The position numbers were made by a program, and so were the translations under genes. The notes under the pieces were generated by a model that ran no database searches, had not been told where the DNA came from, and saw only the letters and a list, made by a program, of their open reading frames with translations. Shown here in pieces: positions 1,114-6,335 of a stretch of DNA of 6,335 nt. Every line of letters begins with the position of its first letter. The stretch's first letter is position 1. Source of the DNA: Candidatus Helarchaeota ASGARD archaeon Hel_GB_B (GTDB lineage: Archaea; Asgardarchaeota; Lokiarchaeia; Helarchaeales; HEL-GB-B); assembly GCA_005191425.1 (NCBI GenBank), contig SUPR01000154.1:1-6335 (forward strand). The letters run 5' to 3'.

Positions 1114-2025
1114 ATGAAAATATCATTAGTTGGGCTATCTGGCTGTGGAAAGACCTCAATCTATGCTACTACATTTGCTTTTAAAAAACCAGAAGATACT
1201 GAGAAATTTGCTCCAACAGTCATGTATGAAGTACGTAATCATCCATATTTGGGTTTGAATGTTTCGATATTTGATTTTGGGGGGCAAGAACAATATCGAG
1301 AGAGTTATTTGGAAAAGACAGAGGTATTTAAAGAGACAGATATATTAATTCCAATAATAGATCTTCATGATAAAGATAGTTTTCAAGAAGCATCTAATTA
1401 TTTTTCAAAAATAGTAAATGTATTTCAATCTTTTGAAAAAAAGCCTAGGATAGTTATTTTTTATCATAAATATGATTCAAAAAATTTTGAAAAAGAAGCG
1501 TTAGAAGTGAATTATCAAGAAGCCAAGAAGATAATAGGCGAAATTTTCAAAGATTGGGATTATAAGGAATATAAAACTTCAATATATGACCAGGAACAAC
1601 TTTCAATGATCTTTAGAGACTTATTAGTAGCAAATTATAAGGACCTCCAAAAACAAGTAGAAAATACACAAGATCTTCTTAAAAACATTAACGCTAAGAT
1701 TATCATTAGCGATATTAATGGAAATGTTATTGTCCATAATGTAAGTGGTATTTCAACTGGACTACAATTAAGAGCTGATCTAAGAGATTTTATTTCATCT
1801 TGTAATACTTTAAGGGAAAACTTTTTCAGGTCAGATTCAGTAAAATTTGCTGGATCTACAGAAGAATCCGAAAAAGAAATGAATATATATATATTCAAAT
1901 ATATCTTGAGTGTTTTAATTATGGGAGAAAACCTATCAAGCAAAGAGTTCCAAGATGAAATATCACAATTATTGAAAGATATGGAGTTATTTGCACAATT
2001 AGTTGTAAAAGCACATGAAGAATAA
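1114..2025 (+). CDS. Rag/Gtr1-like small GTPase with C-terminal roadblock/longin-like domain
   Basis: G1 GLSGCGKTS (aa 7-15); switch I DTEKFAPTVMYE with Thr35 (cf. RagA DTRRLGATIDVE, recalled); G3 DFGGQ (54-58); G4 HKYD (118-121), the His form typical of Rag rather than NKxD; G5 TSIYD (155-159), as in RagC TSIYD / RagA TSIWD. Aa ~176-303 show a helix-strand(IIISDINGNVI)-helix-strands-helix pattern like a roadblock fold. RBS present. Confidence 0.92.
   Translation: MKISLVGLSGCGKTSIYATTFAFKKPEDTEKFAPTVMYEVRNHPYLGLNVSIFDFGGQEQYRESYLEKTEVFKETDILIPIIDLHDKDSFQEASNYFSKIVNVFQSFEKKPRIVIFYHKYDSKNFEKEALEVNYQEAKKIIGEIFKDWDYKEYKTSIYDQEQLSMIFRDLLVANYKDLQKQVENTQDLLKNINAKIIISDINGNVIVHNVSGISTGLQLRADLRDFISSCNTLRENFFRSDSVKFAGSTEESEKEMNIYIFKYILSVLIMGENLSSKEFQDEISQLLKDMELFAQLVVKAHEE
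1639..2022 (+). other. Roadblock/longin-like C-terminal domain of the GTPase
   Basis: ~128 aa after G5, with a hydrophobic-D-x-N-G-x-V-I hairpin typical of roadblock/profilin-like folds. Position matches the C-terminal roadblock domain of eukaryotic Rags. Fold is inferred from pattern only. Confidence 0.6.
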
Positions 2026-2039
2026 ACCAAAATTAATAG

Positions 2040-3209
2040 TTGATTGGAATTATGCCAAAATTAATTAAATTATCTACTGAAAAGGTTGCAGTGGCAGGTT
2101 TGCCACATCAAGTTTCAGTAACATTTGATATGACACTATTAGAATCAAATACATCTGTTGATTTTGCAGGTATTAGATTAATTTCCAATCGTCCATGTAA
2201 AAAAGATATATTGATCTCAAAAATAGATATATTTAATGGAGGAATTTTGGAATCTGGCATATATTCGCGTAATGTTAATCTAAATATCAGTAGAAGAGTA
2301 GTTCCTACAGTTATTGAAAGAAATATTAGATATTTTTTAAGAGGAACTATGGTAATTGAACATGAGACAGGAAAAAGGGAAGAATTCTTTGATGACCATG
2401 ACTTGACCATTATTGCTGAAAAAGAGCCGGTTAGAAGTCCAAGACCAATCTTACTACAAATTAAAAATATTAAAATAAAATTAGATAAGGACATTTTTGA
2501 AAAAGGAGAAACAATAAAAATAAACTATGAAACTGAAAAAATCAAATTACTAAAATTTAAACTTATAAAAGAAGCAAATGTATATTGTCATTGTGCAGAT
2601 TATGCAAAATGTGCTCATATAAAGCAGAATCCGCCGATCACTCTACAAAATCTCGACTTACATAATCCACCATCTTCAGATATTGTATACTTCAATTTAC
2701 CAAATGATTTGGAACCATCACATAATTGGAAATGGATTGGAGCTAGTACATCTTATTTTGAAAATTCAATTGGCGATTCAGTTTCTTATAACCTGGTAAT
2801 CAATGGAACTACATTTAATAATGAAATAATTAGCTTGAATGCACCAATTATTATCGTTGAACCGACCAAAGAAGATCTTTTTATGAAAGAAAAATCTACC
2901 CAACAACCATTTAAAACGACATTTTCTCCAAAAAATATAGAATTACAGAGCTGTATAGTTTCAAATAACATTATTACTTTTAAATTTAAAAATAATTCAA
3001 ATCAAAAACTTGAAGGAATAACAATTTCTATAACCGGTATTCAAAAATCATTTTTTGAAACACCATCATGGATGATCGGAAGACGCGAATGGAATCCTGG
3101 CGAAATTATTGAAGTTTCATATAATAATCACACACCAGATATAGAAAGCTATCAGTTTATTATTGAAACTAACTCTGGAATAAAAGTTAAAAAAATAGAA
3201 AATATTTAA
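2040..3209 (+). CDS. Arrestin-fold protein (arrestin N + C domains; alpha-arrestin/Vps26/SpoOM-like) with Cys/His insertion and extra C-terminal beta-domain
   Basis: N-domain pattern ILESGIYSRNVNLNISRRVVPT...NIRYFLRG (cf. LxxGxYxFxFxFxLPxxLPPS...IxYxL). C-domain pattern IKIKLDKDIFEKGETIKI...YFNLPNDLEPS...VSYNLVI...LNAPIIIV. The track uses TTG 2040, but ATG 2052 (MPKLIK) is the more likely start. Begins 14-26 nt after the GTPase stop. Confidence 0.75.
   Translation: MIGIMPKLIKLSTEKVAVAGLPHQVSVTFDMTLLESNTSVDFAGIRLISNRPCKKDILISKIDIFNGGILESGIYSRNVNLNISRRVVPTVIERNIRYFLRGTMVIEHETGKREEFFDDHDLTIIAEKEPVRSPRPILLQIKNIKIKLDKDIFEKGETIKINYETEKIKLLKFKLIKEANVYCHCADYAKCAHIKQNPPITLQNLDLHNPPSSDIVYFNLPNDLEPSHNWKWIGASTSYFENSIGDSVSYNLVINGTTFNNEIISLNAPIIIVEPTKEDLFMKEKSTQQPFKTTFSPKNIELQSCIVSNNIITFKFKNNSNQKLEGITISITGIQKSFFETPSWMIGRREWNPGEIIEVSYNNHTPDIESYQFIIETNSGIKVKKIENI
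2925..3206 (+). other. Unnamed ~90-aa beta-rich domain (FFETxSW motif), copy 1
   Basis: aa ~296-389: FKFKNNSNQKLEGITISITGIQKSFFETPSWMIGRREWNPGEIIEVSY. Aligns with the N-terminal part of the CBS protein. Confidence 0.7.
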
Positions 3210-3219
3210 TGTAAAATTA

Positions 3220-3230
3220 TTTTCTTTTTT
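3220..3230 (+). terminator. Oligo-T archaeal-type terminator after the GTPase-arrestin gene pair
   Basis: TTTTCTTTTTT starting 11 nt after TAA 3207-3209. Confidence 0.5.
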
Positions 3231-3558
3231 ATATAAAATGAAAAAGATCATTAATTGAAAGTCAATATTTGCTGAATTTTTGTACTCTCTATTTTAAGTA
3301 GAAATCTTTTACCTTTTCACTTTTGAGATTACACTAAAAAGTTAGTAAAATTCGCTTATTTTTATTAAAAATTCTAAATTAAAGAATTATTTTAAAAAAT
3401 TTATTTTAGCCTAAAATGAGAGATTATTTATTAATATTTAATAAAATAATAAAAAATTTGTAAATTAATAATAAATTTGCCAGATTTTTATAATAAAATA
3501 TCTAAAAAGAATTTATAGAAACAATGTATTGGGTTAAATGATTAAAATTTTCTTATTA

Positions 3559-3570
3559 TTCATATAAAAT
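3559..3570 (+). promoter_or_regulatory. Candidate TATA-containing promoter element for the surface protein gene
   Basis: TTCATATAAAAT, identical to 1056-1067, ending 31 nt before ATG 3602. Confidence 0.35.
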
Positions 3571-3592
3571 GTATTCCAAAAACATATAAAAA

Positions 3593-4852
3593 GTGGAAAA
3601 AATGAAAAATTTAAAAAGATTTTCAATGATTACAATTTTATTAATATCTCTACTTAATTTCATGATTATACAAACAATATACGCAAATAATAATGATATT
3701 TCAATAAATACCATATCGACAAAGGGAATAAATCTAGAAACCCAAAAATATTGGCACAATGGTTCGAATATAGTAATTTCAGATTTATCTTTAGAATATT
3801 GGTTAGATGCAAATGTGGTTCAAGGAGAAGATGTACTTTATGAAAATATGTTTATAACATATAAAGATATGACATATACAAGAGTTGGACTTCAAATAAC
3901 TGTCACTTTTGATAAAGGGGGACTAGATGTTGCTAGAAAAACGGTCTTAAATTGGTCTAAAGCAAAATCCTCCGCTATATGTATGATCAGTGATTCTACT
4001 TATCCAAATTATAAAAGAATTGAGTTTTCATTTAATGGGTTTGATATTGTCAATGGAACAGCAAAAGACCTCAAAATAGAAAAAAACAGTAATGAAGAGA
4101 GTTGGAATCACAATGTCAAAAACATAATTAGCTCAATTCAATTTAGAAATACAAATTATTATATAAACAATGTAGAATTAAATACTATTGACTATTTATA
4201 TAATAACCAAGTTCTGAAAAAAAGCATCTTTGATTTTAATGTAACTTTAAACAGCACTATTGGAACAGAAACGCAGAAAAATTATATTCCAGTAATTCTT
4301 AAGTTTCGGATTACGCACAATATAACGTCTACAATTTTCAAGTATGGAATGGACATTGACTGGAGTAAATGTAAAGCATTTCCGACAACAATACCACTTA
4401 GTACAGGTGATGATTTTACATTACTATCAAATGATTTAATCACTGTATCAAACGGAAATTGGCAAATTGGACATTTTACAACCGATCCAGAGAATAGAAC
4501 TGCAATATTTACAAAAAATGGAAATGAATTAGGGCGAGAATATTTTACGACGCAATACCAAATCAAGGGAAGTCCAACAACCTATAATACAACTAGGATA
4601 TATATACAAAATGAGTCAGATCCAGGTGGTATCTATGAGCCGCCCTATGTGTCAAAAGTTTTTGTCTGTTTTGATGGCTTTAAGTATAATCAGAGTACAG
4701 GACTAATTTTTGACCCTATTATAGTTATTCCTTGTTCTTCATCAATTGGTCTGTTTTATTTGATTATTTTTATTATTATACTCGCAGGAATATCAGCGGT
4801 TCCAGTTATTTTCATCATGAAACGGAGATCTAAACCCAAAACAGCCTCATAA
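3593..4852 (+). CDS. Secreted, single-pass (type I) membrane-anchored surface glycoprotein, function unknown
   Basis: Likely start ATG 3602: MKNLKR (basic n-region), FSMITILLISLLNFMII (h-region), TIYA|N (SPase-like site). Ten N-x-S/T sequons (NGS, NWS, NGT, NVT, NST, NIT, NRT, NTT, NES, NQS). Beta-rich ectodomain, C-terminal TM helix IGLFYLIIFIIILAGISAVPVIFIM (4745-4819) and basic tail KRRSKPKTAS. Confidence 0.85.
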   Translation: MEKMKNLKRFSMITILLISLLNFMIIQTIYANNNDISINTISTKGINLETQKYWHNGSNIVISDLSLEYWLDANVVQGEDVLYENMFITYKDMTYTRVGLQITVTFDKGGLDVARKTVLNWSKAKSSAICMISDSTYPNYKRIEFSFNGFDIVNGTAKDLKIEKNSNEESWNHNVKNIISSIQFRNTNYYINNVELNTIDYLYNNQVLKKSIFDFNVTLNSTIGTETQKNYIPVILKFRITHNITSTIFKYGMDIDWSKCKAFPTTIPLSTGDDFTLLSNDLITVSNGNWQIGHFTTDPENRTAIFTKNGNELGREYFTTQYQIKGSPTTYNTTRIYIQNESDPGGIYEPPYVSKVFVCFDGFKYNQSTGLIFDPIIVIPCSSSIGLFYLIIFIIILAGISAVPVIFIMKRRSKPKTAS

Positions 4853-4906
4853 TTTTTTCAATATTTCAATTTTTTTAATATTTTTACCATTTTAATGTAG
4901 TTTTTT
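4853..4906 (+). terminator. Serial oligo-T tracts (terminator) after the surface protein gene
   Basis: T6 at 4853-4858 directly after the stop, T7 at 4870-4876, T5 at 4881-4885, T6 at 4901-4906. Confidence 0.55.
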
Positions 4907-4982
4907 AATTTTTAATCAATTTTATTAATCCCAATTTTAATAATCATTTAAGATCATTAATTCCATAACACCTTTTTGAAAT

Positions 4983-6335
4983 TTAAAAAGCTTTACTTAG
5001 GTCTAAATCAGGAGGAGTAGCCGTAGAAATATCCATATTTAAAATATCTGTATTTGAAATAATCCCTTCAATTTCATTTTCCGAATTTTCTTCAGTTATT
5101 ATAATATGTCTGATACCTTTAGTAATCATGATATGTATTGCTTTTTCAATAGTATCATTTTTACTTAAAGTAATTAATGGAAAATTCATAAGATCTTGGG
5201 CTTTTAATTCTTTAGGATTGGAATCTTGCTCAATTGCACGCCTTAATATATTACGTTCTGTTATTATCCCAATAGCTTTTCTATTTTTAGAAACTACAAC
5301 GCTACCTATTCTTTTTTCGTTCATAATATTAGCAATTTCAATTAAACTCGTTTCAACGTTGACCATAATAACATTTCTATTCATAATTTTTTCAATGGTC
5401 CTTTTGTTTAGATCGGCAATTTTAGAGTATTTTTCTTCTAAATCAGGACTTTTTAACGATTGTTTCAAATATACATTAATTAAATCATTTGTTCTGATTA
5501 TTCCGACTAATTTATCATCTTCTAGTACGGGCAATTTCTTAACACCTGTTTGCAAAATTAGCAAGGCTGCTTTTCGTATGTTATCGTTTTTATTCACGTA
5601 AATTAATGGTGTTGACATAATTTCTTTGCATTTAATTTCGTTAGGAGAAATATTTTGTTCATACATCATGGGGATGACTTTTTTTAGAATATCTCTATGA
5701 GTAATAATACCAATGGGTTTTTCATCTAATGTTATAATAATATAATCGAACCGATTTTTGTTCATTTCAATAACAGCATTTTTAATATTTTCAGAATAAG
5801 AAATAGTTAATGGTTTTTTGTCCATAAAATCTTTTGCGGTAATTATATCAAAAAATGATTCTTTTTTAGATAGATAATCTTTTGCAATAATATCTTTAGT
5901 TAACAGTTTAGTTCCATCGACACTATTTTCTACATTTAATTGAAATTTTTCATTAATATCAGTTATTGGATATTTAAAAATTAACTCTTCATTTGCAAAC
6001 CAAATATCGATAGTAGTTTCCCAACTTGAGGTCTCAAAGAACTCTTCGATTCTAGATATTTGGATCCTAATGTTTCTTAGATTTTTTGTTTGATTCTTTA
6101 AAATGATTTGTAATTTTTGGTTTCCTTCAATTGTTTCGATTGATTTAATAATAATAGGCTTTATAAATAAGTTTCTATCATCTCTTTTCTTATCTAAGTT
6201 GTTACCAACCGAGATTTCAAATTTTCTTGGCTCAGATGGAGGAGTTTGAGAAAGTTCTTTCAAAAATAAATAAGCTAATTTCTGGTTTTTTCTTGTTTCA
6301 GCACTTGTGATTGATTCTATTTTATTTAAATCTTC
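4983..6335 (-). CDS. Multi-domain protein with an FFETxSW beta-domain and four CBS domains (two Bateman modules); 5'-partial
   Basis: Four CBS repeats with motifs GIITHRD, GIIRTND, GIITERN and GIISNTD. The track starts at TTG 6263, but the frame stays open to the window edge (EDLNKIESITSAETRKNQKLAYLFLKELSQ...), so the true start is probably outside the window. Confidence 0.9.
   Translation of the reverse strand, partial: EDLNKIESITSAETRKNQKLAYLFLKELSQTPPSEPRKFEISVGNNLDKKRDDRNLFIKPIIIKSIETIEGNQKLQIILKNQTKNLRNIRIQISRIEEFFETSSWETTIDIWFANEELIFKYPITDINEKFQLNVENSVDGTKLLTKDIIAKDYLSKKESFFDIITAKDFMDKKPLTISYSENIKNAVIEMNKNRFDYIIITLDEKPIGIITHRDILKKVIPMMYEQNISPNEIKCKEIMSTPLIYVNKNDNIRKAALLILQTGVKKLPVLEDDKLVGIIRTNDLINVYLKQSLKSPDLEEKYSKIADLNKRTIEKIMNRNVIMVNVETSLIEIANIMNEKRIGSVVVSKNRKAIGIITERNILRRAIEQDSNPKELKAQDLMNFPLITLSKNDTIEKAIHIMITKGIRHIIITEENSENEIEGIISNTDILNMDISTATPPDLDLSKAF
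5034..5843 (-). other. Tandem CBS pairs (module 1 ~5469-5843, module 2 ~5034-5402)
   Basis: Module 1: AKDFMDKKPLTI...GIITHRDIL...KCKEIMSTPLIYV...LPVLEDDKLVGIIRTNDLI. Module 2: IEKIMNRNVIMV...GSVVV...GIITERNIL...AQDLMNFPLITL...GIRHIII...GIISNTDIL. Confidence 0.9.
5886..6158 (-). other. Unnamed ~90-aa beta-rich domain (FFETxSW motif), copy 2
   Basis: aa ~36-126 of the track ORF: IILKNQTKNLRNIRIQISRIEEFFETSSWETTIDIWFANEELIFKY. FFETSSW is encoded at 6021-6041. Confidence 0.7.

Follow-up and report, generated by a model that had tools for sequence, protein, structure and literature searches.

The 6335-bp window analyzed here is an entire contig of the archaeon Candidatus Helarchaeota Hel_GB_B (SUPR01000154.1), with a G+C content of about 26% and four genes. 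It raises the question why two of its proteins, an arrestin-like protein and a protein with four CBS domains (4xCBS), carry a similar segment around the motif FFETxSW. The motif reads FFETPSW in the arrestin-like protein (3051-3071, + strand) and FFETSSW in the CBS protein (6021-6041, - strand). The segment was found to be a domain of about 100 residues, named FFET in the following, and represents a previously unnamed family of immunoglobulin-like (Ig-like) domains. This family defines a conserved Asgard module of a Rag GTPase, longin, arrestin-like and CBS proteins and a redox enzyme.

In a preliminary description of the window, the two segments had been aligned over 48 columns with 16 identities and two gaps of one residue each, and both this alignment and the positions of the motifs were confirmed by a recount. 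Taken alone, the pairwise similarity of the two window copies is marginal. BLASTP showed 20 identities in 59 columns with an E of 0.004 for a single comparison, while the observed score was reached by 5 of 5000 shuffles of the domain and by 118 of 2000 shuffles of the whole protein. Based on these values only, a chance or compositional resemblance between proteins of an AT-rich genome, comprising no shared domain, could still be considered. However, searching the genome with either segment revealed a third copy on another contig (C161), which forms the last 106 residues (P0016:382-487) of a 487-residue iron-sulfur flavoprotein of the FrhB/FdhB family and comprises the motif SEFFETASY. Since this copy matches the CBS-protein copy with an E of 8e-8 and the arrestin copy with an E of 0.0095, it bridges the two. 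The comparison of whole sub-families can be regarded as decisive. Alignments of the arrestin-type (ARR), longin-type (LNG) and FrhB-type (FRH) copies were built independently, with the proteins grouped solely by their N-terminal parts, and hhalign gave probabilities of 98.2% for ARR-LNG (E 2.9e-14), 98.5% for ARR-FRH (E 2.1e-15) and 99.8% for LNG-FRH (E 7e-29). Thus, the pair remains marginal after shuffling, but the bridging copy speaks against chance and the profile-profile values of 3e-14 to 7e-29 already refute it. The equal strand pattern predicted for both modelled copies and the presence of the domain in 104 genomes, where it recurs in one operon, point in the same direction. Altogether, it is considered virtually certain that FFET is a real domain with homologous copies, and the probability of a chance resemblance is negligible.

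For both window genes the gene models had to be corrected. The arrestin-like gene (2052..3209, +) has an open reading frame (ORF) which is open from a TTG at position 2040, corresponding to the numbering of 389 residues used here. Since the orthologues begin with MPK, the ATG at 2052 is the probable start of translation, resulting in a protein of 385 residues. Its FFET copy (P0001:290-389; 2907..3206, +) matched the profile of the family with an E of 1.1e-32. Of the CBS gene only the 3' part is present (4983..6335, -). It is open at the contig end, which cuts off the first 191 codons, and translation does not begin at the TTG at 6263. The identical protein was recovered in its full length of 641 residues (P0005), together with orthologues of 639-649 residues. 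Since the ORF runs past the contig end and the real protein comprises 641 residues, the FFET copy (P0005:244-348; 5862..6179, -; profile match E 1.8e-38) is located in the middle of the protein. The complete order is a longin fold in the first ~190 residues, long helices, FFET and four CBS domains, which form two Bateman modules fused after FFET (4986..5861, -; Pfam CBS E 5.5e-48 in four stretches). The placement of the domain at the C-terminus of the arrestin-like protein and ahead of the CBS modules in the other one had therefore been recognized correctly, while the longin fold of the latter, hidden by the contig end, had been missed.

Among 75 members of the family, the conserved core comprises the invariant N318 together with [FL]338, F339, E340, W351 and E355 (389-residue numbering), and the signature can be written as L-x-N-x-S ... 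[FL]-F-E ... W-x-P-x-E-E. Of the originally proposed motif FFETxSW, the T, S and first W are each kept in half of the members or fewer. The AlphaFold2 prediction for an alignment of 17 FFET sequences resulted in a predicted local distance difference test score (pLDDT) of 88.9 and showed eight strands with a short helix at the end. An independent AlphaFold2 model of the longin/CBS-type copy comprised strands between residues 252 and 341 and a short terminal helix. This repeats the pattern of the FrhB copy. Based on these models, the fold of FFET is an Ig-like, E-set-like beta-sandwich of two sheets with 7-8 strands. In a VIA scan of 48,161 chains, solved Ig-like domains were matched with a best Z of 9.5, and Z values of 8-9.5 were obtained over 80-104 aligned residues. 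The preliminary description had suggested an Ig-like beta-sandwich of no recognized family, and both parts of this suggestion hold true.

No structural family stands out for FFET in the Foldseek searches (PDB, AFDB) or in the full VIA scan. All neighbours are generic Ig-like domains, including those of GH2/GH3 enzymes, transglutaminase barrels, DUF3244, FlaF/FlaG and CARDB. In Pfam, no family matched any of three FFET copies even at E<=10, and NCBIfam contains no model for the domain. The resemblance to CARDB (PF07705), for which a Pfam match was absent, is a weak one of structure and features: CARDB clusters were the nearest named neighbours by language-model features, with a score of just 0.79. 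For C2 domains there was likewise no Pfam match, and those in the Foldseek list (E ~5e-4 to 1e-3, template modelling score (TM) by target of 0.38-0.46) were equalled by unrelated Ig-like domains. The hhalign comparison of FFET with the arrestin lobes gave a probability of 0.5% and thus no sign that the domain represents a third arrestin lobe.

The proteins carrying the domain are few in kind. When 1.84 billion representatives were searched exhaustively with the profile, only 103 proteins were obtained at E<=1e-3. All full-length matches consist of a longin, an arrestin-like or an FrhB-like part combined with FFET, while the short matches all correspond to C-terminal pieces of these three architectures. 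One odd match (P0120, 1846 residues, E 2e-4), a surface protein with multiple Ig domains, was taken as noise. From the genome searches, a fourth carrier was obtained, an NfnB/GltD-like oxidoreductase of 577-588 residues (Fer4_20 + Pyr_redox_2) with FFET at its end. Neither the FrhB-like nor the NfnB-like carriers had been noticed in the preliminary description. In a tree of 55 domain copies, the copies clustered by architecture, with 5 label changes compared to 24 with shuffled labels. The arrestin-type copies formed one clade with a support of 99/100, while the backbone of the tree was without resolution. Since the copies cluster by architecture, the tree points to old and few fusions and not to free shuffling. 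The earlier designation of FFET as a mobile module is consequently overstated, with only four architectures that all belong to one system.

The survey comprised 301 Asgard genomes from 30 families, of which 104 genomes in 7 families contained the domain. Protein records place Lokiarchaeota among the carriers as well. As far as can be judged from sequence searches, FFET is restricted to some Asgard archaea. Three copies are the commonest count and were found in 55 of the 104 positive genomes. Of the 7 families with FFET, 6 were found to contain an orthologue of the GTPase encoded in the window, and none was detected in the 23 families without the domain. Gene order was compared in 26 fetched loci, and in 14 of them the GTPase gene adjoins genes of the FFET domain. 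Many loci show the order CBS, longin-FFET, (C25 peptidase), FrhB-FFET, GTPase and arrestin-FFET, which is shared by Helarchaeota, Freyarchaeia, a Jordarchaeum record and other families. In the closest relative, a stretch of ~6.4 kb comprises the GTPase gene, a small CBS gene and the genes of all three carriers. The carriers are thus encoded in a single conserved gene cluster that also contains the orthologous Rag-like GTPase, and together with the co-occurrence at the level of families this extends the tight linkage to GTPase and arrestin genes seen in the window.

The cluster varies in several respects. The longin-FFET and 4xCBS parts form a single gene in Helarchaeota and two overlapping genes in genome G294, corresponding to a Rosetta-stone fusion, while in other lineages the CBS part is encoded by a separate neighbouring gene. 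The G294 contig C45 (DATKTP010000045.1; loci L041 and L066) is titled 'Candidatus Deferrimicrobium sp.', was placed in the order of the window genome and contains the full cluster; its organism label is probably wrong. In some clusters a second longin-FFET protein takes the place of the arrestin-like protein. Family f24 shows the order longin-FFET (twice), CBS and FrhB-FFET with the GTPase alongside. In some genomes of this family the NfnB/GltD-like carrier substitutes for FrhB and is encoded last in an operon of GTPase, NuoE-, NuoF-, NuoG-like and NfnA-like genes. In L056 (1751-9421) and L057, this operon of Rag-like GTPase, NuoE-, NuoF-, NuoG-, NfnA-like and NfnB-like-FFET genes is divergent from CBS and two longin-FFET genes. 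All five f24 genomes that were searched in full contained exactly three domain genes, whichever redox enzyme carries FFET. Three genomes of family f15 comprise FrhB-FFET alone, and neither a GTPase orthologue nor other FFET carriers were found in this family. In the genomes of two of its loci (L051, L052) FrhB-FFET is the sole carrier found, and the upstream neighbour in L051 is a GFO/IDH/MocA oxidoreductase.

Further genes were observed next to the carriers. On a Freyarchaeota chromosome, a C25 (gingipain-type) peptidase with a CarboxypepD_reg domain is encoded between longin-FFET and FrhB-FFET (L036 9062-11080; the Pfam run covered L036 only). ORFs of similar size, in total spanning 670-870 residues, occupy this position in loci of families f21 and f10 (L037 8430-11045, L038 9639-12188, L058 and L059). 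In Freyarchaeia, arrestin-FFET is flanked by three genes of ~425 codons (L036 2249-4864), and both of the two scanned products end in a V4R domain. In the lokiarchaeial family f3, a GNAT acetyltransferase of ~160 residues is encoded immediately 3' of a lone longin-FFET gene (L044 10380-10874 and L049 9380-9865).

The GTPase of the window (P0003; 1114..2025, +; 303 residues) belongs to the Rag/Gtr family according to its sequence profile, with 78.9 bits for Pfam Gtr1_RagA compared to a cut-off of 22, and its feature similarity to eukaryotic Gtr1/RagA clusters amounts to 0.91-0.94. The G domain is followed by ~100 residues. The C-terminus (...VVKAHEE) contains no cysteine nearby and no lipidation motif. 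The orthologues in related loci scored more than 300 bits against P0003, while other GTPase matches there stayed below 130 bits and mostly below 60. This gap indicates that the GTPases of the clusters form one orthologous group.

The N-terminal part of the 641-residue protein was modelled by AlphaFold2 with a pLDDT of 81. The model shows strands at 28-35 and 39-46, a helix at 48-67, strands at 79-83, 86-95 and 112-121, and a helical region at 122-157, and on this basis the part is a longin fold with the order beta-beta-alpha-beta-beta-beta-alpha-alpha. It matched a solved Lokiarchaeota longin with a Z of 10.0 and chains of GATOR1, DENND1A, FLCN-FNIP2 and SEA with 9.1-9.8, and the top match among Swiss-Prot models was SMCR8. 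GAP longins of the FLCN/SMCR8/NPRL2 type are characterized by a GP motif right before strand 2 and an arginine finger next to it (PMC12290439). At the GP-motif position, glycine is present in 32 of 32 members, followed mostly by histidine and only once by proline. Between strands 4 and 5, a conserved S/T-x-R-x-K-x-R-x-G loop is found, which represents a candidate arginine finger. Longin-FFET paralogues occur in adjacent pairs in L039, L054, L055, L056 and L057 (f24) and in L040 (f3). In such pairs, only the longer paralogue retains this loop and an FDExxGH motif, while the loop is absent from the shorter one. By analogy, this recalls catalytic/non-catalytic pairs such as FLCN-FNIP. None of the 32 longin members matched Pfam Folliculin (PF11704) at E<=5, neither Pfam nor NCBIfam has a model for the longin part, and an Atlas cluster with Folliculin in 23% of its members was a weak structural neighbour (TM 0.39). 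The sole match in a profile search of the longin alignment against PDB sequences, a designed TIM barrel, was rejected as spurious.

For the arrestin-like carrier, the ESM Atlas model of residues 5-280 showed TM values of 0.51-0.72 to arrestin, Vps26 and Spo0M clusters, and the modelled N-terminal 280 residues form two consecutive arrestin-type sandwich lobes. The gathering scores of Pfam Arrestin_N and Arrestin_C were not reached (17.9 bits compared to 27.7 for Arrestin_C), and Arrestin_C matched below the threshold in 8 of 16 family members with a best E of 3.4e-5. Four cysteines (C53, C183, C185 and C191 in the 389-residue ORF; window positions 2196-2198 and 2586-2612) are invariant in all 16 representatives and probably represent a metal or redox site in the region of the arrestin C-lobe. 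The third carrier is, by its Pfam matches, a member of the FrhB/FdhB family (FrhB_FdhB_N E 4.9e-23, FrhB_FdhB_C E 9.1e-41). It is not assigned as a true FrhB and stayed below the NCBIfam FrhB cut-offs (235 vs 269; 203 vs 331.5).

Regarding the question why these proteins share a domain, FFET is best read as a protein-protein assembly or docking module of one GTPase-centred system, with a probability of roughly two in three. Since the domain was found solely at the ends of different subunits of one operon, it would most simply be an assembly element. Paralogous domains in the subunits of one complex commonly drive its assembly, as for the roadblock domains in Rag-Ragulator and the longin pairs such as FLCN-FNIP. 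The paralogous FFET domains would bind one another and give rise to a pseudo-symmetric hetero-oligomer, which would tether the redox enzyme, the CBS sensor for adenine nucleotides, the longin regulator and the arrestin-like adaptor, so that all of them would constitute a single complex under the control of the GTPase. The longin subunit with its motifs resembling those of GTPase-activating proteins (GAPs) would in this case regulate the GTPase. We infer such an association of FFET with FFET as the mechanism of assembly at somewhat less than even odds. The components of the system would further suggest that the GTPase switch is coupled to energy and redox state. Several observations weigh against this interpretation. 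Lokiarchaeial genomes contain up to five copies with the genes spread over several loci, and therefore three domains per complex cannot be universal. The genomes are related to each other, and the co-occurrence with the GTPase rests on about seven lineages instead of 300 independent observations. Finally, the invariant asparagine and two near-invariant glutamates may just as well belong to a binding site for a ligand, a metal or the membrane.

Instead of each other, the FFET domains could bind a common partner without FFET, either the G domain or C-terminal domain of the Rag-like GTPase or the CBS module, comparable to the Ras-binding domains common to diverse effectors. This docking is consistent with the position of the orthologous GTPase gene directly between FrhB-FFET and arrestin-FFET in many loci, with its co-occurrence with FFET at the family level and with the CBS domains, which are fused right after FFET in Helarchaeota and adjacent elsewhere. 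However, the three f15 genomes retain FrhB-FFET without a GTPase orthologue or other carriers, which mildly favours self-association over docking to the GTPase, and the several carriers of a genome would either compete for a single binding site or need more than one. Docking to a shared partner is therefore ranked second to self-association and appears rather doubtful. A membrane- or lipid-targeting sandwich similar to C2, in which aromatic and acidic loop residues bind the membrane, possibly with a cation, and thereby recruit all carriers together, is unlikely. While the conserved loop [ED]-[FL]-F-E, the element W-x-P-x-E-E and the weak Foldseek matches to C2 and RhoGDI/UNC119 (E ~3e-4 to 1e-3, TM by target 0.3-0.5) would agree with it, many unrelated Ig-like domains score at least as high as these matches, and Pfam showed neither a C2 nor a CARDB match. 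The FrhB carrier resembles FpoF in NCBIfam, and relatives of FrhB, FpoF among them, attach to complexes in the membrane. Nonetheless, general membrane modules are usually widespread, whereas FFET is confined to the products of one operon, and the C-terminus of the GTPase (...KAHEE) has no lipidation box. More improbable still is a sensor of a small molecule or metal, which would provide all carriers with the same regulatory input. The invariant asparagine and near-invariant glutamates as well as the presence of ligand-sensing CBS modules in the system could be explained in this way, but the searches with Pfam, Foldseek and VIA showed neither a pocket nor a match to a known ligand-binding family, and the presence of the same sensor in three subunits would be redundant.

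To our knowledge, the partners of the Rag GTPases, GAP-type longins and arrestin-fold proteins, which count among the Asgard 'eukaryotic signature proteins', are largely unknown. FFET marks a conserved operon in which a specific longin, CBS sensors, an arrestin-like protein and a redox enzyme accompany a Rag-like GTPase, and thereby provides concrete, testable sets of partners and a candidate assembly module; the family could also enter the domain databases. Tentatively, and with a low probability, the cluster may encode an archaeal Rag-GTPase complex for the sensing of energy and redox state. In this complex a catalytic/non-catalytic longin pair, or a longin together with the arrestin-like adaptor, would regulate the GTPase, the CBS domains would read adenine nucleotides and FFET would couple them to the FrhB- or NfnB-like flavin/iron-sulfur enzyme. 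If true, the nutrient-sensing logic of the eukaryotic Rag-FLCN/GATOR and AMPK-gamma systems would have a counterpart and possibly a precursor in prokaryotes, although one wired to redox metabolism.

The fourth gene of the window (3593-4852, +) encodes an unrelated membrane-anchored protein of 419 residues. It comprises hydrophobic segments at the N- and C-termini and showed no match in Pfam or NCBIfam. On the contig of the closest relative this gene is missing at the corresponding position, where the arrestin and longin-CBS genes converge without an intervening gene. It looks like an insertion outside the system. DNA nearly identical to window positions 1114-6335 was observed in hydrothermal-vent and marine-sediment metagenome runs of several studies, with at least half of the sampled words found in five runs from four studies. 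No RNA run was listed among the runs with such DNA.

A full-text literature search yielded no description of the FFET domain or its cluster, although absence there is no proof of novelty. Compared to the prokaryotic Ig-like and E-set sandwiches (CARDB PF07705, DUF3244, GH2/GH3 Ig-like domains, C-terminal barrels of transglutaminases), FFET shares the two-sheet fold of 7-8 strands. In contrast to these, it has its own signature, matches no sequence model and is part of cytosolic products of one Asgard GTPase operon and not of surface proteins. The appendage ('ear') subdomains of adaptin and COPI and the dockerin-cohesin system offer a functional analogy, namely a small end module acting as a platform or as a common plug for enzymes. 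Although the linker-plus-appendage part of beta-COP was among the weak matches (TM ~0.2 by query over the whole model), FFET lacks the platform subdomain and shows no sign of homology. The C2 domains and RhoGDI/UNC119/PDE-delta are also eight-strand sandwiches, which act with small GTPases or membranes and were matched weakly by Foldseek. The lipidated terminus of a client GTPase of RhoGDI/UNC119/PDE-delta is not found in P0003, and a Pfam match was absent.

With respect to Asgard GTPases, the genes for small GTPases of strain MK-D1 are generally not located in operons with roadblock, longin or TRAPPC3 genes (Tran et al., PMC10933270), and a second study (PMC12290439) left open by which GTPase the GAP-like longins of Asgard archaea are used. 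An Asgard operon of a LAMTOR1-like protein, a Rab-like GTPase and a DENN protein, which was read as FLCN-like, was described by Liu et al. (bioRxiv 10.1101/2020.10.19.343400), according to whom its GTPase does not belong to the Rag family. Both this operon and the FFET cluster pair a small GTPase with regulators of the roadblock/longin superfamily. However, neither a domain similar to FFET nor partners of the FrhB, CBS or arrestin kind are described by Liu et al., while the GTPase of the FFET cluster is of the Gtr1/RagA type.

The last comparison is with the eukaryotic Rag/longin assemblies, which comprise the roadblocks of Rag-Ragulator and the longin pairs FLCN-FNIP, NPRL2-NPRL3 and C9orf72-SMCR8. 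In the Asgard cluster the shared domain is neither a roadblock nor a longin but an Ig-like sandwich. A DENN domain is lacking, an arrestin-like protein, CBS modules and a redox flavoenzyme are found among the partners, and the GAP role is putative. Nonetheless, a Rag/Gtr GTPase is present here too, the longin of the cluster matches the FLCN-FNIP2, GATOR1 and SEA chains with Z values of 9.1-9.8, and the Asgard proteins would follow the same principle of homologous domains in different subunits building up a complex.

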